NCBI GenBank assembly: GCA_949296605.1
Contig: CASFPB010000026.1
Coordinates: 14,859-78,858, forward strand
Reading direction: 5' to 3'
Source of the DNA: an uncultured bacterium
Lineage (GTDB): Bacteria; Bacillota_I; Bacilli_A; RF39; UBA660
DNA: 64,000 nt
Part shown: piece after piece, positions 1-62,485 of the stretch
Layout of the letters: each line of letters starts with the position of its first letter
How positions within the stretch are numbered: position 1 is the stretch's first letter
Position numbers and translations under genes: made by a program
Notes under the pieces: model-generated
What the model was told of the DNA's origin: nothing
The model's input: the letters and a program-made list of their open reading frames with translations, nothing else
Database searches by the model: none

Positions 1-602
1 GCTATGCTTGTAAACAATTAGGTATAGAACTTGAAACATCTTCTGTCTCTCAAGCTAAAGGCTTAATAGAACGCACTAACGGCACTTTCCAAGGTAGATT
101 AGTTAATGAGTTAAAGCTGCAAGGTATCACTACCATTGAAGAAGCTAACAAGTATTTAACAGAAATTTTTGTCCCTGATTTCAACAAAAGATTTGCCATG
201 GATTATAAGAAGTTTTCTAGTGTATTTGAATTGTCCCCTTCTTTAGAAAAAATCAATTATACTCTTGCTGTTTTAACTCCTAGAAAAATAGATAACGGCA
301 ACTCTATTAAATATCAAAACAAGTACTATCAGCCATACCAAGGCAATAATTTAAAATGTTTTCTACCAAAAACAGAATGTTTGGTTATTAAAGCATATAA
401 TGGTCAATTACTAGTAACAATTGATGAACAAGTATATGAATTAAAAGAACTATCTAGAAATGAAATATTTTCTAAAGAATTTGATGAAATTATTGAAGTT
501 AAAGAAAAGAAAAAATATATTCCTCCAATGACTCATCCATGGAAAATAGAATATTTTAAAAAGCAATTAAAAAAAGCACATACAGAACATGTATATGCTT
601 AG
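1..602 (+). mobile_element. 3' portion of a DDE transposase (rve/integrase-core type). The reading frame is open from window position 3, so the gene begins upstream of the window.
   Basis: Frame of the 198..602 ORF has no stop back to nt 3. The translation ...LGIELETSSVSQAKGLIERTNGTFQGRLVNEL matches the IS481/IS3/IS21-like integrase-core signature around the catalytic Glu (LGI...T..SPQ.NGKVER.N.TL). A C-terminal extension of about 170 aa follows. Confidence 0.6.
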
Positions 603-939
603 GAAAATTTTATGCCGAGAAAACTTTTTACAAGTAAAGAAATATTTTTTACCTTAATGGAGTTTAATGATTATTATTTTCAGTTTTTGAAAATAATAAT
701 CAATTAAACAACTAAAAATCATTAAAAATATTTCTGCTTGTCAAAAGGAAATTGGAATAAATTTTTCCGTTAATGTTTTAAAAAAATTGAGACATTTTCC
801 TAAATTATTGACAATTAATGTTTGCCCATATTTACTTGAATTATACAACTTTTATATTTAAATATTTAAAAAAATTTTTGTCAATATTCTTTTATGTATT
901 TTAATTTAAAAATATGATAGAATATTTAATGCAAATGAG

Positions 940-3756: not shown

Positions 3757-3789
3757 AATATGCTATAATTAATTATGTAAAATAATTGG

Positions 3790-4611
3790 ATGGTGATGCT
3801 TATGAGTCGTTATATATTAACAATTGGTAATTTTAACTTAGAGTGGTATTCTCTTTTAATAGTTATTGGAGCAACTTTGGGTATTTATATGATTCTAAAA
3901 GAAGCAAAACGTTATAAATATCCAACGGATTTCGTATTTAATTTGTGCTTTTGGACCATTATTATGGGTATAATAGGAGCAAGAGTTTATTATGTATTAT
4001 TTAATTTAAATCTTTATTCTAATTTTTTAGATATATTTAAAATTTGGGAAGGCGGACTTGCAATCCATGGAGGAATAATTTTTGGTCTAATTACTTGTAT
4101 AATTTATTGTAAAAAATACAATATTAGAACTATAAGAATGTTAGATTTTATTGTTCCTTCTTTATTACTTGCTCAAGCAATAGGAAGATGGGGAAATTTT
4201 TTTAATCAAGAAGCTCATGGTGCTGTAACTAGTTTGCAACATTTACAAAATCTTCATATTCCTCAATTCATAATTGATGGTATGAATATTGGTGGAGTTT
4301 ATTATGAACCAACATTTTTTTATGAATCGCTATGGTGTATAATTGGATTTATTTTAATTTTAATAATTAGAAGAATTAAAATAACTAAGGTTGGTCAAGT
4401 AACTGCATTATATTTAATGTGGTATGGTTTAGGAAGATTTTTTATAGAATCTATGAGAACCGATTCATTAATGTTAGGTGGCTTTAAAATGGCACAAATA
4501 GTATCAATTATAATGATTGTAATTGGTGTATTAATTGTAATGATTACAAGTAGAAAAGGTCGTTATGAGGATTTATATAATCAAGATGTTGAGGAAACAG
4601 TTAGATTTTAA
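3790..4611 (+). CDS. lgt: Prolipoprotein diacylglyceryl transferase (start may be ATG 3796 or 3802)
   Basis: 273 aa polytopic membrane protein with the Lgt signature region (GGLAIHGG, GRWGNFFNQE, ESMRTDSL). Conserved uvrA-lgt-trxB neighbourhood. Confidence 0.9.
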   Translation: MVMLMSRYILTIGNFNLEWYSLLIVIGATLGIYMILKEAKRYKYPTDFVFNLCFWTIIMGIIGARVYYVLFNLNLYSNFLDIFKIWEGGLAIHGGIIFGLITCIIYCKKYNIRTIRMLDFIVPSLLLAQAIGRWGNFFNQEAHGAVTSLQHLQNLHIPQFIIDGMNIGGVYYEPTFFYESLWCIIGFILILIIRRIKITKVGQVTALYLMWYGLGRFFIESMRTDSLMLGGFKMAQIVSIIMIVIGVLIVMITSRKGRYEDLYNQDVEETVRF

Positions 4612-4623
4612 AGGAGAAATAAT

Positions 4624-5502
4624 ATGTATGATATTATAATTATAGGTATGGGTATTAGTGGAATTACTGCTGCTATTTACGCTAAAAGAAGTAATAAAAA
4701 GGTTTTAATCATTGATAAAGGTATGCCTGGAGGATTATTAAATAGCATAGATAAGATTAGTAATTATCCAGGACTTATTGATATTACTGGGCCAGATTTT
4801 GCTCAAAAATTATTAGAACAGGTAGAATCATTTGATATACCATATGTCTTAGAAGAAGTTGTAAATTTAGATTTAGATATGGAAGAAAAGATTATTAAAA
4901 CTACAAATAATGAATATAAATCTAAAAAAGTTATATTAGCTATGGGTAGAAAACCAAAATATTTAGGTTTAGATAATGAAAAAGATTTATTAGGTCATGG
5001 CTTATCAACTTGTGCTATGTGTGATGCCTTTTTTTATAAAGATAAAGATATAGCTGTTGTTGGAACTGGTAACAGTGCTTTACAAGAAACAATGTATTTA
5101 TCCAATATTGCTAATAAAATTTATTTAATAAATCGTCGAGATGGATTTCGGGGAGAAGAAATGCTTGTTGAAGAAGTTAAAAATAATCCTAAAGTTGAAA
5201 TAATTTATAATGCCAATATAAAAAATATGAATGAGGTTGATGGCAAATTAAAATCTATTACTTTAGATAATGGTAAATCTATCGATGTTTCTGGTGTATT
5301 TATTTATATTGGTTATAGACCAGCAACTGAAATCGTAGATAAGAAAATATTAGATGAAAATGGTTACGTTATAGTAAATGAAAATTTAGAAACTCCGATT
5401 AAAAATGTATATGCAATTGGGGATGTAATTAAAAAGGATGTTTATCAATTAGTAACTGCTACATCAGATGGTGCTAGAGTTATTTATAATATGAAAAGTT
5501 AG
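4624..5502 (+). CDS. trxB: Thioredoxin-disulfide reductase
   Basis: N-terminal FAD-binding GxGxxG (IIIGMGISG), redox-active CAMCD matching the CAVCD/CATCD motif, NAD(P)H-binding GTGNSALQE. Strong RBS AAAGGAG. Confidence 0.85.
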   Translation: MYDIIIIGMGISGITAAIYAKRSNKKVLIIDKGMPGGLLNSIDKISNYPGLIDITGPDFAQKLLEQVESFDIPYVLEEVVNLDLDMEEKIIKTTNNEYKSKKVILAMGRKPKYLGLDNEKDLLGHGLSTCAMCDAFFYKDKDIAVVGTGNSALQETMYLSNIANKIYLINRRDGFRGEEMLVEEVKNNPKVEIIYNANIKNMNEVDGKLKSITLDNGKSIDVSGVFIYIGYRPATEIVDKKILDENGYVIVNENLETPIKNVYAIGDVIKKDVYQLVTATSDGARVIYNMKS

Positions 5503-5524
5503 AATTATTTAAAAATTTAGTTAA

Positions 5525-5557
5525 ATAAGCTTGTTAAATAAAAAAAGCTTATTTTTT
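5525..5557 (+). terminator. Rho-independent terminator after trxB
   Basis: ataagctt...aagcttat stem followed by TTTTT. Confidence 0.7.
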
Positions 5558-5633
5558 AATTTATAAAATGTATAATTGATTGCTTTTAAAATTTATGATA
5601 TAGTATGCCTTAATAAAAAGGGAGGCATTATAT

Positions 5634-6506
5634 ATGGAATCACATAAAATAAATCCTAAACTAGCAATTTTAATGCATACACTATATGCTAAAATACTAT
5701 TCCAAGTAACGGAATATCAAAAAGAATTACTTGAAGATAAATAATATATTTTTGCACCAAATCATACAAATAATTTAGATGGTTATATTATTTGGTCTTT
5801 ATTAGCTAAAGATTATGACATTGATACATTTATGTATAAAGAATTTTGTGATAATTTTTCTACAATTGCTAAATTGTTGCCATATTTCAATGTTTATCCT
5901 ATTACAAAAGATTCTGTTAAAATAGATGAAATTTTAAATGAAATAAGAAAATTAAGAAATCCTAATCATTTTTTAATAATTTTTCCCCAAGGAAGACATG
6001 TTGATCCAGAAGTTATGTTAAATTTTAAAGATTATCATTTAAATACTATTCCTTTTGGTGCTTTTTATATTGCTGTAAAAGCTTCTAAAAAATTAGGCCA
6101 AAATAATTTAGTCATTTATGGAAATCCGCTTGATCCACAAGATTTTTCATTATTTTCAAAAGGAAAAATACAAAAAGAAAATTTAATTATGTTTGCAAAT
6201 GCGTGGTTAGATGAAATAATCAGATTATATAAAAATGCAAAACAATTAAAAGGGGAAAAATTACATCCTTATGTTATTGAGTCAAGTTATACAGATGCTA
6301 CTTGTTTAGATTATGGATTGTTAGAAGACCCTAATATTGCTATTAATTTTAAAGAGATAATTTTTGCTTTAATAGAAATCTCTAAAAAGACCGGTATAAC
6401 TGATATTGATGAACTAGGTAAAATTGCAAATATTAGTGAAGAAGATATTTTGGCAATTTCAAGTTTAAGAGATATTTATGAAAAGCGATTAGTAAGGTGT
6501 CGTTAA
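5634..6506 (+). pseudogene. PlsC-type (lysophospholipid) acyltransferase interrupted by a single in-frame TAA at 5742-5744
   Basis: Strong RBS AAAGGGAGG, then ATG 5634. The product MESHKINPKLAILMHTLYAKILFQVTEYQKELLEDK reaches TAA at 5742-5744 and continues in the same frame (5832 is in frame with 5634) as YIFAPNHTNNLDGYIIW... The HxxxxD acyltransferase motif (NHTNNLD) lies after the stop and before the next Met (5832), so neither piece is a complete enzyme. Confidence 0.7.
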
Positions 6507-6567
6507 ATTTTTTAAATTTGTTTTTTATAAAAAAATATGGTAATATATCATTTATGGTGCAGGGGTT

Positions 6568-8271
6568 ATGAAAGAAAATACTAATTTAAAGATATTATGC
6601 TTGTTAATTATAATTTTAATTGGAGTTTTATGTTGGGTTAATTATGATAACTTTTTTATAAACAATAAAGAAGAATATTCAAATTATGCTTTATCAACTT
6701 ATGAAATTGATGTTTCAAATTTTAATTTTGTTAATAAAGTTATTAATAATGAAAAAGTTTATTTATTATATAATTTGGATGATTATTTTTTAGTTAAAGA
6801 AATAGATATTTTAAACAATAAAGTTAATAATTATTCAAAAGCTTTAAATAAAGATTGTAAATTACAAAATGAAGATAATTATCCTTATATTTATTGTAGT
6901 GATAATAATTATGTAACTATTTATGATATAAAATTTAATAAATTAATTAATCAAAGTATTAAAAGCAATTATAACTATGTAATTAATATTGATGGAAGTA
7001 ATTTAAGTTTTGAAATTGGAGATTATAATTATAGTTATCAGTATATTAATGGTTATTATAAAAATACTATAAAAAAATATGTTGAGTTAGAAACACCATA
7101 TACTAAGGATATATTTTGTGATGATTATTGTTTATATATAAGATATAATGATTTAAATCAATTAATTAGTTTATATGATGATACTAATCTTTTAGAAACT
7201 AATATTAGTAATTATGGTTTATTTGAAAAAGGAATTTTTACTTATAATGAAAATAAAATTAAGATACATGATGTAGTAAATGATGAATATAAAGAATTTA
7301 ATAGTCCAATCAATAACTTATCTAATAAATTAATTACTTTGGGAACTAATTATTATTTATATGTTTTAAATGGTAATAAAATAAATGTATATAATTTATA
7401 TACAGACGAAATTATTGAAAATATAACTTTAAATACAGATTATAATATAAATGAGATTGTAGTTAATTATAATAATTTATATGTATTTACTGATAGTTTA
7501 TTATATGTATATGATATTTTTAATATTGAAGGCAATAATGTTGAAAGTTCATTTGTTTATGAAGAAAGATTGATTAATGATAAAATAAATGAATATAAAA
7601 ATAATTACGGTGTTTATATAAATATTTATGATGATCCTAGTTATTTGGATGATCAATATAATGTGTATAAATTAAATAACTATAATGATATTATTAATGC
7701 TTTAGAAGAGTTAGAAGATTATTTTAAAATATTTAATTATGATTTTTTTAATAGATTTAATAAAAATAATTTTAATGGGTTTGAAATATATTTCGTTAGT
7801 GGAATTAATGTGAATAATTCTAATTACAATAGTGTAGATGTAGTTGGTTTATTTACTTTAAAAAATAATAAATATATCATAGCTATAGATGTAAGTGATA
7901 TTGAAGATATTAAAACTATTGCTTGTCATGAAACTATGCATGCAATAGAATATTATTTAAATAATAATAAGATTTATTTTAATGAATGGAATAGTTATAA
8001 TCCAAATGATTTTTCGTATAATGGGGTATATTATACAAATCGAAGTTTTTATGATACTTTAGATTCTTATAAGTTTAATGAGGATGTTTATTTTATAGAT
8101 AACTATGCAAGAAGTAATGTTTTAGAAGATAGAGCAAGAACTTTTGAAACAATATGTAGAGGGGAAGATTATAGTAAATATCCTAATCTTAATGCTAAAA
8201 TTGATTATTTAAAAAGTGTTATATTATCTAATTTTCCAGAGTTATATTTTTCAAGTTATTTTAATAATTAA
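6568..8271 (+). CDS. Membrane-anchored, Asn/Tyr-rich hypothetical protein with an HExxH motif (putative zinc metallopeptidase-like)
   Basis: 567 aa with N-terminal TM (LKILCLLIIILIGVLCW). HExxH within IACHETMHAIEYY near residue 455. Low-complexity N/Y-rich sequence elsewhere. Confidence 0.5.
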   Translation: MKENTNLKILCLLIIILIGVLCWVNYDNFFINNKEEYSNYALSTYEIDVSNFNFVNKVINNEKVYLLYNLDDYFLVKEIDILNNKVNNYSKALNKDCKLQNEDNYPYIYCSDNNYVTIYDIKFNKLINQSIKSNYNYVINIDGSNLSFEIGDYNYSYQYINGYYKNTIKKYVELETPYTKDIFCDDYCLYIRYNDLNQLISLYDDTNLLETNISNYGLFEKGIFTYNENKIKIHDVVNDEYKEFNSPINNLSNKLITLGTNYYLYVLNGNKINVYNLYTDEIIENITLNTDYNINEIVVNYNNLYVFTDSLLYVYDIFNIEGNNVESSFVYEERLINDKINEYKNNYGVYINIYDDPSYLDDQYNVYKLNNYNDIINALEELEDYFKIFNYDFFNRFNKNNFNGFEIYFVSGINVNNSNYNSVDVVGLFTLKNNKYIIAIDVSDIEDIKTIACHETMHAIEYYLNNNKIYFNEWNSYNPNDFSYNGVYYTNRSFYDTLDSYKFNEDVYFIDNYARSNVLEDRARTFETICRGEDYSKYPNLNAKIDYLKSVILSNFPELYFSSYFNN

Positions 8272-13953: not shown

Positions 13954-14433
13954 ATGAAATTATTAGTTTATTTTAGTTATACAGGACATACAAAGTATAT
14001 TGCTGAAATCATTAAACAAAATATTAATTGTGATGTAATTCGTTTAGAACCAGTTATTTCATATTCAAATGATTATAATAAAGTTGTTAATGATGAACAA
14101 AATCAAGAAAGCAGTGATATAATTCCTGAAATTAAAGATATTAATATTGATTTGGATTTATATGATACAATTATTATTGGAACTCCAGTATGGTGGTATC
14201 GTAGTGCCCCAGTTATTAGAGCATTTTTAAAAAAATATGATTTATCAAATAAAATAATTATTCCTTATGCTACTAATGCTGGATGGTTGGGTAAAACATT
14301 TAATGAAATTAAAAGTTTATGTCCAAATTCAAAAGTAGTAAATGAATTTAATATTGTGTTTACTAGTGATTATATTAAAAATGAGTTAGTTACACCAATT
14401 GAGACAATTGAAAATTGGATAAATAATATATAA
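13954..14433 (+). CDS. Flavodoxin-family protein
   Basis: 159 aa. N-terminal YFSYTGHTKYIAE (flavodoxin phosphate-binding loop-like) and PVWWYRSAP. Confidence 0.65.
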   Translation: MKLLVYFSYTGHTKYIAEIIKQNINCDVIRLEPVISYSNDYNKVVNDEQNQESSDIIPEIKDINIDLDLYDTIIIGTPVWWYRSAPVIRAFLKKYDLSNKIIIPYATNAGWLGKTFNEIKSLCPNSKVVNEFNIVFTSDYIKNELVTPIETIENWINNI

Positions 14434-14447
14434 GAAAAGGAGAAAAA

Positions 14448-15332
14448 ATGGAAAAGTCAAAAGTTTATTTTATTAAAGAAATAACATCAGAAAATATTAT
14501 TAAAATTTATAATGCTTTAGGAAAAAAACTTGAAGGAAATGTTGCTGTTAAATTGCATTCTGGTGAAAAAGGAAATAGAAATTATTTGAAACCTGAATTT
14601 GTAAAGGATATTGTAAAATATGTTAATGGGACAGTGGTGGAATGTAATACTGCATATGAAGGGGCTAGAAACACAACTGAAAAACACCGTAAATTAATTG
14701 AAGAACATGAATGGGAAAAGTATTTTTCATTTGATTTAATGGATGCTTTGGGACCAGATTTAGAACTTGATGTTCCAAACGGTAAAGTTTTAAAGAAAAA
14801 TTATGTTGGTAAAAATTTGGCAAATTATGATTCAATGTTAGTTTTATCGCATTTTAAGGGGCATGCTATGGGAGGATATGGTGGTGCTTTAAAACAACTT
14901 AGTATTGGTTGTGCATCATCTAAAGGTAAAACGCTAATTCATACTGCTGGTGTTACTGATAATCAATATGAATTATTTAATAATTTACCTGAACAAGATA
15001 AATTTTTAGAAGCTATGGCTGATGCTGCTAGTAGTGTTGTTAATTATTTTAATGGTAATATTGTATATATTAATATTATGAAAAATATTTCTATAGATTG
15101 TGATTGTGATGGTAATGCTAGTCTTCCGTGTATGAATGATATAGGAATTCTTGCAAGTATTGATCCTGTTGCCGTTGATCAAGCATGTTTAGATTTAGTT
15201 TATAATTCAAATGATTTAGGTAAAGAAAAGTTAATTAAAAGAATAGAATCTTTACATGGAATTCATACAATTGAAGCTGCTAGTGAACTGGAAATTGGTT
15301 CTAGGGATTATGATTTAATAGTAGTTGAATAA
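14448..15332 (+). CDS. DUF362-family protein (putative redox/Fe-S associated)
   Basis: 294 aa. N-terminus MEKSKVYFIKE...AVKLHSGEKGN typical of DUF362. Cys cluster CDCDGN. Confidence 0.5.
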   Translation: MEKSKVYFIKEITSENIIKIYNALGKKLEGNVAVKLHSGEKGNRNYLKPEFVKDIVKYVNGTVVECNTAYEGARNTTEKHRKLIEEHEWEKYFSFDLMDALGPDLELDVPNGKVLKKNYVGKNLANYDSMLVLSHFKGHAMGGYGGALKQLSIGCASSKGKTLIHTAGVTDNQYELFNNLPEQDKFLEAMADAASSVVNYFNGNIVYINIMKNISIDCDCDGNASLPCMNDIGILASIDPVAVDQACLDLVYNSNDLGKEKLIKRIESLHGIHTIEAASELEIGSRDYDLIVVE

Positions 15333-15453
15333 TTAAGAATAACTGTTATATTTTATAGCAGTTTTTTATTATCAGAAAAAAGTTAGTTAAATAAAAATAT
15401 ATAATTGATTGTTATTTAATTTTATTAATGTTAAAATAAACTTGTGATTGCTT

Positions 15454-42201: not shown

Positions 42202-42278
42202 TGGTAGCGACGGTGTGATTCGAACACACGACCTGCCGGGTATGAACCGGATGCTCTAGCCAACTGAGCTACATCGCC
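42202..42278 (-). tRNA. tRNA-Met (anticodon CAT, elongator-type loop TTCATAC), encoded CCA
   Basis: Reverse complement GGCGATGTAGCTCAGTTGGCTAGAGCATCCGGTTCATACCCGGCAGGTCGTGTGTTCGAATCACACCGTCGCTACCA folds as a cloverleaf with a GTTCGAATC T-loop. Confidence 0.9.
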
Positions 42279-42540
42279 ATGTCAATTTGTATTAATATAT
42301 TAACATAAATTGTTTATTTTGACAAGTAAAATTTTATGTAAGTTATTTGAATTTTATTATTTGTTAAAATATGTAATTTATTTGTATAATATTTACATAG
42401 ATTTACAATATATTTAAAATGTTTTTTTTTGCCAAAAATTAAAGATAAAAATAAAAAAATAAAAAAAATATTAAAAAATGGCAAAAAAAAACATTGCAAT
42501 TATATGACGGTTTGTTATAATTAATTTGAGGTTAAGAGAA

Positions 42541-44502
42541 ATGGAAAATAGCACAGTTTTAGAAAATTTAGTAGTAGTTAAACGTAGTGGTCAACGAGTA
42601 TCATTTAATAGTGTTAAAATAGCTGTTGCTATTAAACAAGCTTTTGATAGTAGTGATGAAAACGAAATAAATAATGAAAAAAAAATAAATAGAGTTTATA
42701 ATCAAGTTTTAAAATTTATAATTGAATCTTATGAAAATAGAAAAACCATTAATGTTGAAGATATACAAGACATTATTGAAAATGTGCTTAAAAAAACCGG
42801 ATATCATGATGTATATAAGAAATTCAATGAATATCGGTTGCGTAGAGCTGCTTCAAGAGAAGCTTTTTCGGTAAAAGAACAACATAAGTTTGTTAAAGCT
42901 ATTGAAAAAATAGGATTGACTGCTAAGAATTCTAAAAATGCTAATCCTGACGATTTGTTGTTAAATTTTGGAAAGACCATTTCTCAGGAATTTGCCAAAG
43001 CTTATCTTTTAGAATCAAAATATGTTCGTGCCCATGAAGAGGGAAGGATTTATATAGATGATTTAAAATCTTATGCATTAAAAACCACTTCTTCATCTCA
43101 TTTAGATTTTAGTAGTATCGAATCAAATGATATTGATGAAATTACTTTAAAAATATTAAATATAGTAAATAGATTTAAAAGTGAACAATATGGCGAACAA
43201 ACTATTTCAAATTTAGATCAAATATATAAAAATGTAATGATTTCTGATTTTAATAATAAATTTTTGGATAATTTAAAGTGTTTTTTTAAAGTATTAGGAA
43301 TATATGAATTCTTTGATTTTAATGATTTAAAAAATGTATTAGTTGAGAATAATACTATTAAAATAAATATTGATGCTTTTGATGCAATTTTACCAAATGA
43401 AAAAATAAAAAATTATTTTTGGGATATATATAGAATAACTAATGATTATATAGAAGCTAAATTGTTAAAAAATATTGAACTTTTGTTAAAAAACTTTAAT
43501 AGTAATTATTTAAAATATATTGATACTTCTTTATCAATTAGTTTAAGTGAAATTGATGATTTTGAATCAATGTATTTTAAAGAAAAATATTTTGAAATTT
43601 TAAATAAAATTAGTTTTAAAAAGATTGCTACTATTTGTAAGGTGAAAAAAAATACTTCATTAGATTATATAGTAGATGAGGTTTACAATAAAAATAATAT
43701 TATTATTCTATATTTAGATAATAATGAATACGATGATTATTTAGAAACGTTTAGTAATCAAATTATAATTAATGAAAATGTTAATAATGATTTACAAACA
43801 TCTCGAGGTAGAATACTTAATTCATCAATTACAATTAACTTGGCTAGGCTAGGATTAAAATATAATAAGGAAAGTATAAATGACTTTTTTGCTGAACTTG
43901 ATGATTTATTAGAATTGTCTAAAAATGAATTAATACAAAGATATGATTTTCAATCTAGTTTATATAAAGAGAATTTTAATGGTATTTTTGAAAATAATAT
44001 ATTGTTTGACTCTAAAAAACTTGATTGTAATCAAAAAGTAAGGAAAGTTCTAAAAAATGGAGTTTTATGTATTAATTTTTCTGGTTTGGTAGAATGTTTA
44101 GATGCTTTATTTGATGTTTCTGAAAAAGCTGTTGTTAAATTGGATTTTGGTTTAAAAATTGTTGAGTTTATGAAAGAAAAAACAAATAGATATAAATCTG
44201 ATTTAAAATTAAATTTTATTTTAGCAGAGGAAAGTTCAAAAATAGTAAATAAAAATTTATTAGCATTAGATAAAGCTATGGTTGGAAATATAGAGATTTT
44301 GAAAAAAGATTTTTATTCTAGTTTAAGTAGTTTGTTTAATGATTTAAGTAATAAAGCTTTATATCAATATATAGTAAAATATCAAAAAATTTGTAGTTTG
44401 AATTTAGTATTAAATGTTGATAGAAATAAAAGTAAAATAAAAGATTATATAAAGGAATTAGAAAAAGAAAAGGTAAAAGTAGTAAAGGTGGTGGTAAAGT
44501 GA
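42541..44502 (+). CDS. NrdD-like protein: ATP-cone plus degenerate class III RNR body, lacking the glycyl-radical domain
   Basis: N-terminal ATP-cone (VVVKRSGQRVSFNSVKIAVAIKQAF...). AHEEGRIYIDDL is collinear with AHRSAAIHLHDL of the downstream NrdD. No RxxGY motif, no Zn-ribbon Cys and no CAGWS. 658 aa; 4-nt overlap with nrdG. Confidence 0.7.
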   Translation: MENSTVLENLVVVKRSGQRVSFNSVKIAVAIKQAFDSSDENEINNEKKINRVYNQVLKFIIESYENRKTINVEDIQDIIENVLKKTGYHDVYKKFNEYRLRRAASREAFSVKEQHKFVKAIEKIGLTAKNSKNANPDDLLLNFGKTISQEFAKAYLLESKYVRAHEEGRIYIDDLKSYALKTTSSSHLDFSSIESNDIDEITLKILNIVNRFKSEQYGEQTISNLDQIYKNVMISDFNNKFLDNLKCFFKVLGIYEFFDFNDLKNVLVENNTIKINIDAFDAILPNEKIKNYFWDIYRITNDYIEAKLLKNIELLLKNFNSNYLKYIDTSLSISLSEIDDFESMYFKEKYFEILNKISFKKIATICKVKKNTSLDYIVDEVYNKNNIIILYLDNNEYDDYLETFSNQIIINENVNNDLQTSRGRILNSSITINLARLGLKYNKESINDFFAELDDLLELSKNELIQRYDFQSSLYKENFNGIFENNILFDSKKLDCNQKVRKVLKNGVLCINFSGLVECLDALFDVSEKAVVKLDFGLKIVEFMKEKTNRYKSDLKLNFILAEESSKIVNKNLLALDKAMVGNIEILKKDFYSSLSSLFNDLSNKALYQYIVKYQKICSLNLVLNVDRNKSKIKDYIKELEKEKVKVVKVVVK

Positions 44503-45188
44503 TTTATATTGAAGGATTACAAAAAGTTACATTATTAGATTTTCCTAAAAAGGTAGCTTGCACCATTTTTACTAAGGGTTGTAATTTTAATTGTTCGTTT
44601 TGTCAAAATTCTAGTTTAATACCATGTGATAAGGGTAAAATTAGTGAAGATGAAATATTTGAATACTTAAATAAAAGAAAAAATATTTTAGATGGTGTTG
44701 TTATTACCGGGGGTGAACCATTAGTTCAAAAAGATATTAAGTGCTTTATAAAAAAAATAAAAGATTTAGGTTTGCTTGTTAAACTTGATACTAATGGTAG
44801 TAATCCAAAAGTTCTAAAAGAACTAATTGATGAAAATTTAATTGATTATGTTGCTATGGATATAAAAAATATATTTTTAAAATATAAAATGACTGTAGGT
44901 AAAAATGTATTATTAAAAAATATTGAAGAAAGTATAAATATTTTAAAAAATAGTAATATTGATTATGAGTTTAGAACTACAATAGTAAAAGAATTACATA
45001 CAATTGATGATTTAAGAAAAATATGTGAATATATTGGAAATAAATGTAAATATTATTTACAAAATTTTGAAGATAGTGAAGATGTTATTAATCATAGCTT
45101 GCATGGGTTTTCACATGATGAGCTTTTGATGATAAATGATAATTTGAAAGGTAGTTTTCCCAATATGGAAATTCGTGCTTTATCTTAG
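44499..45188 (+). CDS. nrdG: Anaerobic ribonucleoside-triphosphate reductase activating protein (radical SAM)
   Basis: CNFNCSFCQN (CxxxCxxC) cluster motif. GGEPL SAM-binding motif; 229 aa. Confidence 0.85.
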   Translation: MIYIEGLQKVTLLDFPKKVACTIFTKGCNFNCSFCQNSSLIPCDKGKISEDEIFEYLNKRKNILDGVVITGGEPLVQKDIKCFIKKIKDLGLLVKLDTNGSNPKVLKELIDENLIDYVAMDIKNIFLKYKMTVGKNVLLKNIEESINILKNSNIDYEFRTTIVKELHTIDDLRKICEYIGNKCKYYLQNFEDSEDVINHSLHGFSHDELLMINDNLKGSFPNMEIRALS

Positions 45189-45206: not shown

Positions 45207-47597
45207 ATGTATAAAGTAAGAAAAAGAGAAGGAAAAATAGTAGGGTTTGATATTTTAAAAATTAAGGAAGCAATTAAAAAAGCGTTTGATTCAGTAGAAA
45301 GAACTTATGATGATAATGTTATTGATTTTTTAGCATTAAAAGTAACTTCTGAATTTGAACCAAAATTAAAGGATAATATAATATCTGTTGAAGATATTCA
45401 AGATTGTGTTGAAGAAGTTTTATCTAAAGCAGGGTATTCTGATGTTGCAAAATCATATATCTTATATCGTAAGTTACATGAAAAAATGCGTAATATGAAA
45501 TCAACGGTTTTGGATTATAAAGATGTTGTAAATAGTTATATTAATGTAACTGATTGGCGTGTTAAAGAAAATTCAACTGTTACATATTCAGTTGGTGGAT
45601 TAATTTTAAGTAATAGTGGAGCAATTACTGCAAATTATTGGTTAAGTGAAGTTTATGATGAAGAAATTGCTAATGCTCATAGAAGTGCTGCTATTCATTT
45701 ACATGATTTATCTATGTTAACAGGATATTGTGCTGGATGGAGTTTAAAACAATTAATTCAAGAAGGCTTAGGTGGTGTTCCAGGCAAAATTACTTCTGCA
45801 CCTGCAAAGCATTTATCTACTTTATGTAATCAAATGGTAAATTTTTTAGGTATTATGCAAAATGAATGGGCTGGTGCTCAAGCATTCTCATCATTTGATA
45901 CTTATTTAGCGCCTTTTGTTAAGATTGATAATTTAGATTATCATGAAGTTAAACAATGTATTCAATCTTTTATTTATGGAGTTAACACTCCAAGTAGGTG
46001 GGGAACTCAAGCACCATTTACTAATATTACTTTAGATTGGACAGTTCCAAATGATTTGGCTGAATTAAATGCTATCATTGGAGGAAAAGAAGTAGATTTT
46101 AAATATAAAGATTGTCAAAAAGAAATGAATATGATTAATAAAGCATTTATTGAAATAATGATTGAAGGGGATGCTAATGGTAGAGGATTTCAATATCCTA
46201 TTCCAACATATTCTATTACAAGAGATTTTGATTGGAGTGAAACAGAAAATAATAAATTATTATTTGAAATGACTGCAAAATATGGAACTCCTTATTTTTC
46301 AAACTATATTAACAGTGATATGGAACCTAGTGATGTAAGAAGTATGTGTTGTCGTTTGCGTCTTGATTTAAGGGAACTTCGTAAAAAATCTGGTGGTTTC
46401 TTTGGTAGTGGTGAATCTACTGGATCTATAGGTGTTGTAACTATTAATTTACCAAGAATTGCTTATTTAGCTAAAGATGAACAAGACTTTTATGAAAGAC
46501 TAGAAAAATTAATGGATATAGCTGCCCGTTCATTAAAAATAAAAAGAAACGTTATAACTAAATTGCTTAATGAAGGTTTATATCCTTATACTAAACGTTA
46601 TTTAGGTTCATTTAATAATCATTTTTCTACTATTGGTTTAATAGGTATGAATGAAGTAGGATTAAATGCAAAATGGTTACGTGCTGATTTAACTCATGAA
46701 AAAACACAAAAATTTGCTAAAGATGTATTAAACTTTATGAGAGAAAAACTTAGTGATTATCAAGAAGAATATGGGGATTTGTATAATCTAGAAGCAACAC
46801 CAGCAGAATCTACTACTTATCGTTTTGCTAAACATGATAAAGCACAATATCCTGATATTATAACTGCTAGTGAACCTGATCATACACCATATTACACAAA
46901 TAGTTCTCATTTACCAGTTGATTTTACTGATGATATTTTTGCAGCATTAGATATTCAAGATGAATTGCAAACATTATATACATCAGGAACTGTATTTCAT
47001 GCATTTTTAGGTGAAAGATTAACTGATTGGAAGGCAGCTGCTAATTTAGTTAGAAAAATTGCTGAAAATTATAAATTACCATATTATACTATGTCTCCGA
47101 CTTATTCAGTTTGCCAAACTCATGGATATATAAATGGTGAAGTATATAAATGTCCAATTTGTGATAAAGAAACAGAAGTTTATAGTAGAATAACAGGTTA
47201 CTATCGTCCAGTTAAAAATTGGAATGATGGTAAGGCTGAAGAATATAAGAATCGTAAAGTATATGATTTAAGTAAATCTCATTTGAAACATGAAAAATGT
47301 GAAAGCGATGATTGTAAATGTGATGATTGCAAATGTGATAATTGTGAATGTAATGATAATTTAAAAGATGGTTTATATTTATTTACAAGAAAGAATTGCC
47401 CTAATTGTAAAAGTGCTAAAAGTATTTTAGATAAAGCTAATTTAAAATATGAAATAATTGATGCAGAAGAAAATGCTGATTTAAGTAAAAAATTAGGTAT
47501 TAAGCAAGCTCCAACATTATTAGCAATAAATGGTGAAAATATAGATAAATATTCTAATGTTTCTAATATAAAAAAATATATAGGTAGTAACAAATAA
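45207..47597 (+). CDS. nrdD: Anaerobic ribonucleoside-triphosphate reductase NrdD with C-terminal Cys-rich linker and NrdH/glutaredoxin-like domain
   Basis: ATP-cone. AAIHLHDLSMLTGYCAGWSL. Zn-ribbon CQTHG...CPICD. Glycyl-radical motif RITGYYRP. Then CESDDCKCDDCKCDNCEC and a redoxin fold LYLFTRKNCPNCKSAK...QAPTLL. Confidence 0.85.
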   Translation: MYKVRKREGKIVGFDILKIKEAIKKAFDSVERTYDDNVIDFLALKVTSEFEPKLKDNIISVEDIQDCVEEVLSKAGYSDVAKSYILYRKLHEKMRNMKSTVLDYKDVVNSYINVTDWRVKENSTVTYSVGGLILSNSGAITANYWLSEVYDEEIANAHRSAAIHLHDLSMLTGYCAGWSLKQLIQEGLGGVPGKITSAPAKHLSTLCNQMVNFLGIMQNEWAGAQAFSSFDTYLAPFVKIDNLDYHEVKQCIQSFIYGVNTPSRWGTQAPFTNITLDWTVPNDLAELNAIIGGKEVDFKYKDCQKEMNMINKAFIEIMIEGDANGRGFQYPIPTYSITRDFDWSETENNKLLFEMTAKYGTPYFSNYINSDMEPSDVRSMCCRLRLDLRELRKKSGGFFGSGESTGSIGVVTINLPRIAYLAKDEQDFYERLEKLMDIAARSLKIKRNVITKLLNEGLYPYTKRYLGSFNNHFSTIGLIGMNEVGLNAKWLRADLTHEKTQKFAKDVLNFMREKLSDYQEEYGDLYNLEATPAESTTYRFAKHDKAQYPDIITASEPDHTPYYTNSSHLPVDFTDDIFAALDIQDELQTLYTSGTVFHAFLGERLTDWKAAANLVRKIAENYKLPYYTMSPTYSVCQTHGYINGEVYKCPICDKETEVYSRITGYYRPVKNWNDGKAEEYKNRKVYDLSKSHLKHEKCESDDCKCDDCKCDNCECNDNLKDGLYLFTRKNCPNCKSAKSILDKANLKYEIIDAEENADLSKKLGIKQAPTLLAINGENIDKYSNVSNIKKYIGSNK

Positions 47598-48499
47598 TGT
47601 ATGATATTGTTATTGTTGGAGCTGGTCCTGCTGGATTAACAGCTGCAATATATGCTTTAAGAGAAGAAAAAAAAGTTGTTATATTAGAAAAGGAAACTAT
47701 AGGAGGTAAAATTACCTCCTCTTCTAAAGTTGAAAATTATCCAGGATTTAAATCTATAAGCGGTATGGATTTTGCTAATAATTTATATGAACAAGTAATT
47801 GATTTGGGGGGAGAAATAAATATTGAAGAAGTTTTATCGATAGAAAATGGAAAAGTAAAAAAAGTTATTACTGATGAAAATACTTATGAAACTAAAAGTA
47901 TTATTATAGCAAGTGGGTCTAAATATAAAACTTTAAACTTAGATAATGAAGAAGAATTAATAGGTAATGGAATATCTTTTTGCACAGTTTGTGATGGATC
48001 TTTTTATAAAAATAAAGATGTTTGTGTTGTTGGCGGAGCTAATAGTGCTTTAAATAGTGTTTTATATTTATCAAAATTATGTAATAAAGTATATTTAGTT
48101 GTTAGAGGTCCTAAATTAAAAGGCGATAAAAAAGTAATTGATAATGTTTTATCATTAAGTAATGTAGAGGTTTTATATAATACTACAGTTAATAAATATA
48201 TTTTAGATAATGATGAATTAGTAGGTGTAGAAGTAAAAAGTAATGAAAGTGAAAAAAGATTAGATGTAGAAGGTGTGTTTTTAGCAATTGGTCAAAGCCC
48301 AGAAATTAACTATTTAAACAATTTGGTAAAAGTTGATGAAAATAATTATGTTTTAGCATCAGAAGATTGCATAACAAATATAGATGGTATATTTGTAGCA
48401 GGAGATGTAAGAAAAAAAGAAGTTAGACAACTTACAACTGCTGTAAGTGATGGAACCAATGCTGCGATAAATGCCATAAATTATTTGAAAGAGGTTTGA
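47597..48499 (+). CDS. Thioredoxin-reductase-like flavoprotein (second TrxB paralog), start overlapping the nrdD stop
   Basis: VIVGAGPAGLTAAIY FAD motif, CTVCDGSFY redox-active disulfide, GGANSALNS NADPH motif; 300 aa. Confidence 0.8.
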   Translation: MYDIVIVGAGPAGLTAAIYALREEKKVVILEKETIGGKITSSSKVENYPGFKSISGMDFANNLYEQVIDLGGEINIEEVLSIENGKVKKVITDENTYETKSIIIASGSKYKTLNLDNEEELIGNGISFCTVCDGSFYKNKDVCVVGGANSALNSVLYLSKLCNKVYLVVRGPKLKGDKKVIDNVLSLSNVEVLYNTTVNKYILDNDELVGVEVKSNESEKRLDVEGVFLAIGQSPEINYLNNLVKVDENNYVLASEDCITNIDGIFVAGDVRKKEVRQLTTAVSDGTNAAINAINYLKEV

Positions 48500-48542
48500 T
48501 TCTTCTTTCTTTTTTGTTATAATAGGCAAAAGCGAGGAAAAT

Positions 48543-59340: not shown

Positions 59341-61929
59341 TTATTCTAATCCAGTATTAGGTTTGTTATTAGGCTTTTCAGTTGAATTGTTATTATTTGT
59401 ATTATCTTCTATAATGTCTCCAACATTGGAATCCATCCCTAAATTTACTTTTATTTCTAAACCATCGCTCATATTGTTTGTAAATATAGTATATGCTGAT
59501 TTTATTACATAAGTAACTGTCCCACTATCAGTTGGATTATTATTAAATGAATAGTTTGTGTTTTCAGTAGAGCCTATATATGTTAAGCTGCCACTACTTT
59601 CTTTTTTAAATATTTGATACCCTAATTTACCAATATAACTATTATTGTAATTTAATCTTTGTTCATAATATCTACTTGCATGTTTATCAAAATATGTATT
59701 GAAATAAGTTTGTAAATTTGATGTATCAATTGCTTTTGGAGTTTTTATTCCTGTCCATGTTAAATTAACTGTTGTTCCATTAAATGTATATTTACCATTT
59801 GTTGGTGCATCTAATTTTGCAAATCTTGTAGATACTTCAGTAGGTTCTGTTCCTTCTTTAAATAATTCAACAGACCTTAAATTATCAGGAGTATATTCAC
59901 TTGCTAATTGAAGGGGAATGGTTTCTTTTTCTATTTCTACTTCGATAACACCACTTGGTTTTGAAAATGTTTTGTTTTTAGAATAAACTTTAGATCCTAC
60001 CGCTTTCATTATTGCTTTTCTTGCTTTATTACCAACACTTACAGTTAGATAATCTTCTTTTGTAGTTTTATCATATCCTAACCATAATGCAATAGAATAT
60101 TCTGGAGAATAGGTAACATTCCATGAATCTCTTGTAGCAGATGTTGGAATTCCATTTTGTTCTGCCCAGCTTCTATCAACATTTGATGTTCCTGATTTTG
60201 CTGCAATATCTGTTCCACTTACTGAAACACCACCAACACCGTTTTCTGCTGCTGATACTAACATATCAGTTATCATATATGCTGTTTCTTCACTCATTAC
60301 TTTTTCTTTTTCATATTTATATTCTATTATTTCTCCAGTTTCAATAATTTCTAATTTTGTATATGAGTATGGTTCGATATAATATCCACCTCTACCAAAT
60401 GCTGCATAAGCTGCACTCATTTGAATAGGGCTTATTCCTTCAAAACCACCAATTGAGGCTGATTCATATAAATCTGCTCCGTAGTCTATTCCTAAACTAT
60501 GAACAAAATCAATGATGTAATCTGGATTTTCTTTATATACAGCTTGAAATGCTTTTAATGCGGGAATATTTCTTGACTCAATCAATGCTGTTCTCATTGT
60601 TATTAGTCCCATATATTTGCCATCTGCATTTTTGATTGATGTTCCATTACTATATGATGATTCTTCATCTAAAAACAATGTTCCTGGTGATCCATTTAAA
60701 TATTCTATGTATGGGCCGTAATCAAATAGTATTTTTGCTGTTGAACCAGGTTGTCTTATAACTGTTGCTCTGTTGTTTCCTTTGGCGGTGTAATTTCTTC
60801 CTCCAGATAATGCAACTATCGAACCATCTGTCGTGCTTGTTATTGCCATTCCTTCTTGTAAAGTTTCATTTGGAAATTCATATATTTCTTCATTTTCTAA
60901 TTGGTTTAATACACTTTGAACTTCTGGATCTATTGTTGTTACTATTTTCATTGGAACATAAAATGGATTCATTCCTGTTCTTTCGGTAACCTCATTTCTT
61001 ACATAATCTATTACTGCTTGGTTAGATCCATTATTATTTTCATTTTCAGCTAGTAGTGATTCTACTGGAATACTTAATACAGCTTCTTTTGTTTCTTCAC
61101 TTATATATCCGTGTTGAACCATAAGTTTTAATACTATTTCTTGTCTGTCTCTAACTTTTTCTGGATTTGTATATGGATTTATTGTTGCTGGATTTTGAAA
61201 CATTCCTGCTATAATTGATGCTTCTGCTAGGGTAAGGTCTGATACTGATTTTCCAAAATAGTATTGGCTTGCTTGTTCAACTCCATATATTCCAGAAGTA
61301 TTATTACTTCCATTATTTCCTAACCATTGGCTATTTACATAAAATTCAATAATTTCTTCTTTTGTATAATTACTTTCTATTTTAAATATAGCCATATATA
61401 TATCTGTAAATTTACGTATTATTCCTTCTAATCCTTCATCTTCATTATTAGTATATACTTGTTTAACAAGTTGCATTGTTAATGTTGATGCACCACCAGC
61501 ACTGCTATTTCCCAATAATTGTCCAAAAGATGCTTTTAAAAATCTAGCAACATCCATTCCTTTATGTTGAAAAAATCTTGAATCTTCAGTAGCTATTAAA
61601 GCATCAATTAAAACTTGTGGTAATTCATCATATGATACTAAAACTCTATCTTCTGCTCCAAGTCTTGCTAATTCAGTTACACCATCTTTATAATATAATA
61701 CCGTTGATTCTTTAGAATATAGTTTTTCTTTATCAAAATCAGGAGAAGTAATGATTATATATAATGCAAATATTAACATTATTGATATTACTGCAATGCC
61801 ACCAATAAGGATTATTGATAATATTATTGATTTTATATCAAATTTCTTATTTGTTTTTTTTGCTGTTTGATTTTTCTTTGCTTTTCCATTTTTTTTAATT
61901 TTTATCTTTCCGAGTCTTATTTTTTTCAT
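59341..61929 (-). CDS. ponA: Bifunctional class A penicillin-binding protein 1A (transglycosylase/transpeptidase) with Asn/Thr-rich C-terminal tail
   Basis: N-terminal TM. GT51 motifs (ATEDSRFFQHKG). Transpeptidase SxxK / KSGT. Start ATG at 61929 after a GGAGG RBS. Confidence 0.9.
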   Translation of the reverse strand: MKKIRLGKIKIKKNGKAKKNQTAKKTNKKFDIKSIILSIILIGGIAVISIMLIFALYIIITSPDFDKEKLYSKESTVLYYKDGVTELARLGAEDRVLVSYDELPQVLIDALIATEDSRFFQHKGMDVARFLKASFGQLLGNSSAGGASTLTMQLVKQVYTNNEDEGLEGIIRKFTDIYMAIFKIESNYTKEEIIEFYVNSQWLGNNGSNNTSGIYGVEQASQYYFGKSVSDLTLAEASIIAGMFQNPATINPYTNPEKVRDRQEIVLKLMVQHGYISEETKEAVLSIPVESLLAENENNNGSNQAVIDYVRNEVTERTGMNPFYVPMKIVTTIDPEVQSVLNQLENEEIYEFPNETLQEGMAITSTTDGSIVALSGGRNYTAKGNNRATVIRQPGSTAKILFDYGPYIEYLNGSPGTLFLDEESSYSNGTSIKNADGKYMGLITMRTALIESRNIPALKAFQAVYKENPDYIIDFVHSLGIDYGADLYESASIGGFEGISPIQMSAAYAAFGRGGYYIEPYSYTKLEIIETGEIIEYKYEKEKVMSEETAYMITDMLVSAAENGVGGVSVSGTDIAAKSGTSNVDRSWAEQNGIPTSATRDSWNVTYSPEYSIALWLGYDKTTKEDYLTVSVGNKARKAIMKAVGSKVYSKNKTFSKPSGVIEVEIEKETIPLQLASEYTPDNLRSVELFKEGTEPTEVSTRFAKLDAPTNGKYTFNGTTVNLTWTGIKTPKAIDTSNLQTYFNTYFDKHASRYYEQRLNYNNSYIGKLGYQIFKKESSGSLTYIGSTENTNYSFNNNPTDSGTVTYVIKSAYTIFTNNMSDGLEIKVNLGMDSNVGDIIEDNTNNNNSTEKPNNKPNTGLE

Positions 61930-61933
61930 TTTA

Positions 61934-62485
61934 TCAACCTCCAATTAATTGATCAACTATTTTTATATAATCTAATCCTTTTAAGCTTAGTTTTATTTCA
62001 TATGCATTTTTTAATAGATATTCATATGGAATACTTTTTCTAGTTTCTTTTTCAATAAAATTCAAAAAATCTTTGCCATTTAATAAAAAATATTTTGAAT
62101 TCATCATTATTATTAAAAAAACTATGCCACCATGTTTATTAATATTTCTTATGTGATTTATTTGATGAGGATGAACATTATTTAAAGGAAATGATGTTTT
62201 ATTTTGAGTAACTTTTGCATCAAATTCTATATAAAAACCTTTATATAATCCATTAAAGTCTAATGTAGATGGTGTTTTATAATATCCATCATGTATTCTT
62301 TTTCCACCATTTTCATATATAACTTTTACAACTCCGATTGGTGTTGGCTTTTTGTATATATATGCTATATCATTTTCTATATAATATTCATTTGCTTGTT
62401 CTATTAAATATTCTAAATCCATTCCACGATTGCTATAATCGATTGTTTTAGAATAATTTTTTTTAATGTTATTTGGATATAACAA
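61934..62485 (-). CDS. recU: Holliday junction resolvase RecU
   Basis: YSNRGMDLEYLIEQANEYY...YKKPTPIGVVKV matches the RecU core. Conserved recU-ponA operon. Confidence 0.88.
   Translation of the reverse strand: MLYPNNIKKNYSKTIDYSNRGMDLEYLIEQANEYYIENDIAYIYKKPTPIGVVKVIYENGGKRIHDGYYKTPSTLDFNGLYKGFYIEFDAKVTQNKTSFPLNNVHPHQINHIRNINKHGGIVFLIIMMNSKYFLLNGKDFLNFIEKETRKSIPYEYLLKNAYEIKLSLKGLDYIKIVDQLIGG

Follow-up and report, generated by a model that had tools for sequence, protein, structure and literature searches.

A catalytically dead NrdD paralog with an ATP-cone at the head of the class III ribonucleotide reductase operon in uncultured gut Bacilli

The DNA stretch considered here, the window, comprises 64,000 nucleotides from an uncultured bacterium of the GTDB lineage Bacillota_I; Bacilli_A; RF39; UBA660 (GenBank assembly GCA_949296605.1, contig CASFPB010000026.1, positions 14,859 to 78,858 of the forward strand), and holds a four-gene operon for the anaerobic, class III ribonucleotide reductase (RNR). 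The first gene of this operon (42541–44502), which precedes the activase gene nrdG, the catalytic gene nrdD and the flavoprotein gene trxB, encodes a paralog of the class III catalytic subunit that is folded as a barrel but no longer catalytic, as shown by homology, fold and loss of motifs. This protein, called dead NrdD in the following, retains an ATP-cone and is under purifying selection. In gut anaerobes it probably serves class III RNR as a regulatory partner not described before. The more specific proposal, a regulatory pseudo-subunit that senses ATP/dATP and works in trans, carries a probability of about 0.5.

The degenerate barrel and the ATP-cone

The gene and the parts of its product lie as follows.

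42541–44502, plus strand: dead NrdD paralog of 653 residues, with ATP-cone, linker and degenerate RNR barrel but without glycyl-radical domain (Pfam, NCBIfam, motif alignments, AlphaFold2 (AF2) model)
42526 (TTG) or 42541 (ATG) to 44502, plus strand: open reading frame (ORF) of dead NrdD, with two candidate starts
42571–42846, plus strand: ATP-cone, residues 11–102 (PF03477, 54 bits)
42811–42915, plus strand: linker helix, residues 91–125, ending in YRLRRAASREAFSVKEQHKFVKAIEKIGL, kept although the NxN flap downstream is not conserved
43051–43101, plus strand: degenerate HxHD (YIDD, residues 171–174) and TTSSSH (residues 182–187, beta-A cysteine gone), followed by a 15-residue deletion of the s-site hairpin (alignments)
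43744–43818, plus strand: finger loop ETFSNQ (residues 402–407) without radical cysteine, and SRGRIL (residues 421–426) with arginine at the Asn435 equivalent (alignments)

The NRDD profile PF13597 matches dead NrdD at 97 bits (cut-off 26.2), with residues 133–563 collinear with profile positions 6–412 of 562, and the cone profile PF03477 matches it at 54 bits against a cut-off of 25.8, so the body does not belong to an unrelated family that has only the cone in common with NrdD. The protein falls below every NrdD equivalog cut-off, the best score being that of PRK07111 (181.5 bits against 764), with 88 bits against 326 for TIGR02487. Its AF2 model (predicted local distance difference test score (pLDDT) 86.5, predicted template-modelling score (pTM) 0.76) has P. 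copri NrdD as top match in the PDB, with an E value of 2.5e-30 and a template-modelling (TM) score of 0.67–0.79, and also matches the NrdDs of S. thermophilus, T4 and T. maritima. An earlier interpretation made from the letters alone (the sequence-only reading) had described a full-length NrdD paralog, of the same size as the genuine NrdD two genes downstream and collinear with it. The homology holds in both profile and fold, and so does collinearity, with the PF13597 profile. However, the sizes differ (653 against 796 residues), and "full-length" is a loose term for a protein whose glycyl-radical domain is missing.

Motifs were defined after P. copri NrdD (PMC11226230), with the finger-loop classes MGCR and MCCR taken from PMC9669993, and were compared by alignment with active NrdDs. 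The HxHD motif of active enzymes is Y171-I-D-D in dead NrdD, and the beta-A cysteine is replaced by S185, within TTSSSH in the window protein versus TTTCNQ or GYCAGWS in active enzymes. The s-site beta-hairpin (GFSTGHGHLR) is deleted. The finger loop MGCR/MCCR has become F-S-N-Q in the window protein (residues 404–407) and FSNG or FSDG in its family, Asn435 (P. copri numbering) is replaced by arginine, and the ATPAE loop reads AEESS. The zinc ribbon and the RxxGY motif are absent, the protein lacking the C-terminal ~100 residues of the reductase part and terminating at the last barrel strand with KVVKVVVK. Having lost both substrate and radical motifs, dead NrdD cannot bind substrate or hold a radical.

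This pattern extends to the family, since the glycyl-radical domain is missing in all aligned members and no cysteine is conserved at any position across their alignment. The losses listed by the sequence-only reading (the His pair, the cysteine of the Cys loop, the zinc ribbon and RxxGY) are thus each seen against active NrdDs, its Lys/Val-rich tail is indeed how the protein ends, and the alignments disclose no intact glycine or catalytic cysteine that it had missed. N133-A-N135 at the site of the NxN flap is fortuitous, as relatives do not keep the motif and the flap region itself is shortened. A residual glycyl radical at the C-terminal "KVQVGK" of distant members was considered and discarded, because the glycine is not conserved (KVVVK in the window protein) and neither zinc ribbon nor finger-loop cysteine is present.

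The cone of P. copri NrdD binds two ATP or dATP molecules through K7, R8, Y83, R87 and R91 (PMC11226230). In the phmmer alignment to 8p23 these residues correspond to K14, R15, Y98, R102 and R106 of dead NrdD, all of them invariant in 21 family members. By its ligands, the cone appears to be of the fully competent two-nucleotide type and would be expected to bind nucleotide; the earlier description of an intact ATP-cone on a dead RNR body is borne out on both sides. Median identities among dead NrdDs, and between these and their active split relatives (described below), are 63% and 61% for the cone (residues 10–90) and 63% and 66% for the linker helix (residues 91–125), while for the body they are 25–45% among dead NrdDs and 18–40% between dead and active proteins. 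Since the cones and linkers of dead NrdDs are as close to those of active split NrdDs as to one another, the N-terminal module seems to be constrained as in a working enzyme, even though the flap is gone.

Family, origin and linkage to class III RNR genes

A word-indexed search recovers more than 120 full-length relatives of 640–670 residues, with identities down to 39%. A profile search over 1.84 billion representatives yields 287 clusters at E ≤ 1e-30, approximately 90 of which are full-length (600–715 residues, more than 400 bits), a family size that counts clusters at 50% identity. The canonical finger-loop cysteine and the glycyl-radical domain are both lacking in 31 of 33 sampled representatives, many of which have the derived finger loop YFx[N/D]GxR in common. 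More than 80 genomes carry the gene with an intact reading frame. The ratio of nonsynonymous to synonymous substitution rates (dN/dS) of the dead gene is 0.05–0.16 in 23 closely related pairs, with the N-terminus equal to the body, compared with 0.04–0.18 for nrdG, 0.01–0.08 for nrdD (same lineage) and 0.05–0.17 for trxB. Purifying selection acts along the whole gene, and the claim that the paralog is stably maintained is therefore well founded.

In a neighbour-joining tree, dead NrdDs form one monophyletic clade with a long stem, in which evolution is several-fold faster than in active enzymes from these bacteria. The best sequence match of the window protein is P. copri NrdD (8p23, 94 bits), and an insertion, DSKKLExxQKVRKVLKxG, is common to dead NrdD and the P. 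copri-like clade. Dead NrdD derives from the formate-type, P. copri-like NrdDs and not from its neighbour, which is a double-cysteine (SMCCRL), Glu-containing, thioredoxin-type enzyme with a body only ~15% identical. Family-specific invariant residues of the body, such as E563 and K213-x-E215, differ from those of active NrdDs. A recent tandem duplication of the neighbouring gene was rejected, as the two proteins share 25% identity over the N-terminal 239 residues only and have different best models (PRK07111 versus PRK08270).

The closest active relatives (33–35% identity) are split NrdDs, found at eight loci (L075, L079, L082–L084, L086–L088) and with the same arrangement in all eight. Their large subunit, of 756–766 residues, keeps both catalytic cysteines and the zinc ribbon and stops just before the glycine loop. 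It is followed by a ribosome-binding site (RBS), a separate ORF of ~50 residues with RIRRITGYLVG (within FEHIRRITGYLVGT) and a short NrdG. At L082 the parts are placed as follows.

L082, 2085–4355: large subunit of split NrdD
L082, 4377–4532: 51-residue ORF
L082, 4533–5087: NrdG

L082 belongs to the metagenome-assembled genome (MAG) that also contains L010, where dead NrdD matches that of the window at 99% identity. Split nrdD genes have been reported in phages, where they arise through introns and homing endonucleases, and a 2026 review of glycyl-radical enzymes gives spare-part glycyl-radical proteins for formate lyases only. No description of a split NrdD with a detached glycyl-radical peptide was found in the literature searched.

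Other dead NrdD lineages hold cones of different flavours (RKRDGR, IKRNGRR), namely P0230, P0193, P0234, P0235, P0248, P0261, P0219 and P0211. P0193 is dead but keeps a zinc ribbon and ends like a split large subunit, which hints that the dead family arose from a split NrdD. P0230 (L089, 8001–10043) is ~50% identical to active Tissierellia NrdDs and probably has an independent origin, so that catalysis may have been lost more than once with the cone retained. The profile search started from the least-degenerate dead NrdDs (A2) recovered mostly active Tissierellia NrdDs, and its sole yield was the context of P0230.

The genomic neighbourhood ties the dead gene to class III RNR. With each species represented by a single genome, a scan gave 255 stretches encoding a relative, of which 80 were kept. 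The complete cassette of dead NrdD, nrdG, nrdD fused to a glutaredoxin-like domain (nrdD-Grx) and trxB is present in 68 of these 80 loci, with flanks that vary between loci. Nearly all other dead-gene loci end at a contig end, while at L078 nrdD is shortened and trxB broken. The triad proposed from the single locus is therefore found, together with trxB, in 68 species-level genomes, and the dead gene would be, as had been claimed, a co-expressed partner of the class III system. In the window its TGA stop (44500–44502) overlaps the GTG start of nrdG (44499) as GTGA, just as described earlier; the overlap amounts to 4 nt in 25 of the 68 cassettes, and most of the rest have a short one.

Four further arrangements complete the picture. 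At L055 the dead gene is followed by a formate-type NrdD that is not split and by a short NrdG, and since this dead gene is nested in the dead clade, the partner was exchanged while the dead gene stayed. At L090 a deeper, less degenerate relative diverges from an operon of MCCR NrdD and NrdG2, and at L091 and L092 deeper relatives diverge from an operon of E. coli-like NrdD (RMNGY), NrdG and dUTPase (dut). Altogether, dead NrdDs adjoin class III RNR genes, of four NrdD subtypes, in 73 of 74 loci with a readable neighbourhood.

The cassette itself is not a fixed block. L010 and the window share 99% identity in dead NrdD and nrdG, 82% in nrdD and 43% in trxB, a drop that points to a recombination breakpoint between nrdG and nrdD. 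In the pairs L062/L065 and L019/L020, the synonymous divergence (dS) of the dead gene is much above that of its neighbours, which likewise indicates a mosaic cassette. At L001, several DDE transposase genes lie on both sides of the cassette (281–7169 and 14074–15384), which suggests that the cassette can be part of mobile or rearranged DNA.

Upstream of the dead gene, the window holds a putative operator.

42419–42494, no strand assigned: inverted repeat ATGTTTTTT-N58-AAAAAACAT, the right arm of which runs into the -35 element

The pair of arms occurs once in the 64-kb window, against 0.01 expected from shuffles. In 62 of 87 loci both arms stand in front of the first NrdD-like gene, with a spacer of N58/59 and, in 53 of the 62, an outer span of 76–77 bp. 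Within the 1.05 Mb of loci, 143 of 197 matches to AAAAAACATT lie at most 320 nt upstream of the first NrdD-like gene. The repeat is a putative operator and is specific to the class III RNR promoters of these Bacilli, those of the operons of active split NrdDs included. At L092 it stands by the promoter of nrdD and not by that of the dead gene. NrdR boxes are absent upstream in the window, and at ≤3 mismatches they match in 2 of 76 upstream regions.

The proposed regulatory role and its alternatives

In the mechanism that is proposed, the cone of dead NrdD would bind ATP or dATP, and the protein would associate with catalytic NrdD dimers or with NrdG through its cone and linker helices and/or its barrel, tuning deoxynucleotide output to the dATP/ATP ratio. 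In the NrdDs of P. copri and S. thermophilus, dATP pairs the cones via their C-terminal helices or drives tetramerisation, which keeps the connector off the active site, and the cone and linker surfaces of dead NrdD would be those that pair cones in such dATP-inhibited enzymes. What links the protein to this role is synteny, namely the 68 cassettes and the four other arrangements. The suggestion of a pseudo-enzyme partner made by the sequence-only reading is strengthened by the dead body, the live cone, the selection and the linkage, while its function as allosteric subunit, sensor or chaperone stays at the level of inference. A broader version of the proposal, somewhat more tentative, sees in dead NrdD a third component of class III RNR in a large group of gut Bacilli, a master switch for ATP/dATP that would act in trans through cone pairing or gating of NrdG and would coordinate NrdD-Grx and the split formate-type NrdD under one shared operator.

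Several points weigh against the trans-acting pseudo-subunit. Nucleotide binding, the sign of the effect and any complex formed with NrdD or NrdG are all inferred. The neighbouring catalytic NrdD has an ATP-cone of its own, which leaves no obvious need for a second sensor. The NrdDs that accompany dead genes belong to four subfamilies, and this speaks against an interface that co-evolved tightly with the neighbour. Models built on such a finely adapted interface are weakened by the neighbour's own cone and by the exchange of partner types in evolution. One distant dead NrdD, P0230 at L089, stands alone, away from nrd genes. Finally, cone and linker resemble those of the split formate-type NrdD encoded elsewhere in the MAG that holds L082 and L010, and this strong similarity suggests that the split enzyme may be the real partner, which would then lie outside the operon.

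Among the alternatives, an unlikely one, though the strongest of them, is that dead NrdD is a partner of the activase, with its barrel stabilising, sequestering or delivering NrdG, so that radical installation and not catalysis would respond to ATP/dATP. The short stop/start overlap with nrdG, 4 nt in 25 of 68 cassettes, suggests translational coupling, the gene order mimics the canonical order of nrdD and nrdG, and the identities between L010 and the window, high for the dead gene and nrdG but not for nrdD and trxB, indicate that the first two genes travel together. However, dead NrdD lacks the glycyl-radical domain, which is the target of the activase, and at L055 and L090–L092 the dead gene neither adjoins nrdG nor is coupled to it, the NrdG types being different.

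Slightly less probable is an obligate heterodimer, in which the dead subunit would pack core to core with one catalytic NrdD, in the manner of yeast Rnr4 and Rnr2, as the permanently "inactive" monomer of a half-of-sites enzyme. Dimers of P. copri NrdD are indeed asymmetric, with one active and one inactive monomer (PMC11226230). The first core helix (residues 136–166) is the best-conserved part of the body, at 52% identity among family members and 48% against active split NrdDs, and the dead gene is predicted to lie in the same transcript as nrdD. Nevertheless, the s-site hairpin, located at the dimer interface, is deleted, the neighbouring NrdDs belong to four subfamilies that were swapped in evolution, and the body of the window's neighbour is only ~15% identical.

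It is improbable that dead NrdD is a nucleotide-sensing transcription regulator, an analogue of NrdR that binds the operator ATGTTTTTT-N58/59-AAAAAACAT. Such a role would fit the fixed spacing of an operator specific to these nrd promoters, the near absence of NrdR boxes (2 of 76 upstream regions), the position of the dead gene, first in its operon or divergent from it like many regulators, and the possession of an ATP-cone, as in NrdR. On the other hand, Pfam recognises no DNA-binding domain or zinc ribbon in the protein, its body is not basic (isoelectric point 6.2), and the operator of L092 lies beside the promoter of nrdD instead of that of the dead gene.

The odds are just as long for a neofunctionalised protein unrelated to RNR control, either a nucleotide binder or a new active site in the old barrel. 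The invariant body residues unlike those of active NrdDs (E563, K213-x-E215), the shared derived finger loop YFx[N/D]GxR and the solitary P0230 speak for it, but 73 of 74 readable loci adjoin class III RNR genes, and the best-conserved part of the protein is its RNR-type cone and linker. A decaying pseudogene or annotation artefact without function, suggested by the loss of all catalytic residues and by a body that evolves several-fold faster than active NrdDs, is effectively refuted by the dN/dS of 0.05–0.16 in close pairs, by the frame kept intact in more than 80 genomes, by the confident AF2 fold and by the depth and diversity of the family.

In current descriptions, class III RNR consists of two proteins, NrdD and its activase NrdG, with control by NrdR at the level of DNA. 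Full-text searches of the literature that could be searched, and a targeted look at RNR phylogeny papers and the 2026 review of glycyl-radical enzymes, gave no account of a catalytically dead NrdD paralog, in line with the earlier statement that it was not known as a class III component. Dead NrdD is an RNR-family pseudoenzyme with an ATP-cone, and there is a realistic chance that it represents a new functional component of class III RNR.

Several known systems resemble it in part. With the formate-type (MGCR) NrdD of P. copri (8P23; PRK07111), dead NrdD shares the two-nucleotide cone ligands, the linker helix and the 10-stranded barrel. Unlike that enzyme, it lacks the beta-A cysteine, the s-site hairpin, the finger-loop cysteine, Asn435, ATPAE, the zinc ribbon and the glycyl-radical loop, its HxHD is degenerate and its flap is not conserved. 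NrdR is likewise non-catalytic, its ATP-cone sensing ATP/dATP to control ribonucleotide reduction; however, it consists of ~150 residues with a zinc-ribbon DNA-binding domain followed by the cone, whereas dead NrdD has 653 residues, no zinc ribbon, a dead barrel of 530 residues and no NrdR boxes upstream.

The ATP-cone borne by NrdB in Leeuwenhoekiella blandensis and Facklamia ignava is also an activity switch placed off the catalytic polypeptide and working through dATP-driven oligomerisation (PMC5794259 and 10.1101/373563). Those enzymes, however, are class I with a functional carrier subunit, while in the present class III system the cone is carried by a catalytic subunit that is dead.

A further parallel is yeast Rnr4, an inactive paralog of the RNR small subunit that is kept as partner of the active Rnr2. 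It is a class I beta subunit without metal ligands that is needed for folding and cofactor assembly. Rnr4 and dead NrdD are both inactive RNR paralogs, but Rnr4 lacks an ATP-cone.

A dead NrdD that is under selection and whose allosteric domain still works would represent a new type of factor in deoxynucleoside triphosphate homeostasis and a natural experiment on an ATP-cone uncoupled from catalysis. A pseudo-subunit acting in trans, if true, would add to the cis cone mechanisms recently solved for the NrdDs of P. copri and S. thermophilus. Dead NrdD is spread over many uncultured gut Bacilli (RF39-like, "Ca. Avacholeplasma", CAG:776, CAG:1193). The genomes of these organisms are small, and class III RNR may be what they depend on for DNA precursors. 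Names such as "anaerobic ribonucleoside-triphosphate reductase" or "hypothetical", which databases give to the protein, would mislead metabolic reconstructions.

The operon and the rest of the window

The four genes are co-directional and lie between a minus-strand tRNA (42205–42278) and a terminator-like hairpin. The remaining features of the operon are the following.

42494–42521, plus strand: promoter-like TTGCAA-16-(TG)TATAAT, followed by an RBS (GAGG, 42528–42531); consensus match only
44499–45188, plus strand: nrdG, activase of the NrdG2 type (TIGR02495, 223 bits)
45207–47597, plus strand: catalytic NrdD of 796 residues (PF13597, 640 bits; PRK08270, 1150 bits)
47597–48499, plus strand: trxB, thioredoxin-reductase-like flavoprotein (TIGR01292, 321.5 bits, just below the cut-off of 343)
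48487–48509, plus strand: terminator-like hairpin with T-run at the end of the operon; pattern match only

Of the two candidate starts of the dead gene, ATG at 42541 is the likely one, given the GAGG at 42528–42531 and the promoter-like site upstream. The -35 element has the context AAACATTG[C/A] in 53 of 61 non-redundant upstream regions. An Rfam scan returns only the tRNA at 42205–42278 and no riboswitch or leader.

The catalytic NrdD holds the double-cysteine loop SMCCRL, the active-site Glu, a zinc ribbon and RITGYY. A Cys-rich repeat (KCESDDCKCDDCKCDNCECN, residues 697–716) joins it to a C-terminal glutaredoxin-like domain with NCPNC, to which the trxB product is the presumed electron donor. 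NrdD-Grx and trxB (45207–48499), kept together in all 68 cassettes, would form a self-contained electron chain from NADPH to NrdD.

The locus is 99% identical to L009, from a chicken-gut MAG named "uncultured Bacilli", and relatives carry the names Ca. Avacholeplasma, Ca. Onthocola, Mycoplasma sp. CAG:776, Clostridium sp. CAG:1193 and CAG:762. Elsewhere in the window, no further genes for NrdD, NrdR-like cones or glycyl-radical peptides were found. The window is very AT-rich, with a G+C content of ~24%. The stretch 60001–62000 has the highest G+C content (0.298) and is the sole one with negative GC skew (-0.19) and AT skew (-0.22), the skew being strongly positive everywhere else; it is likely to contain RNA genes or genes read from the opposite strand.

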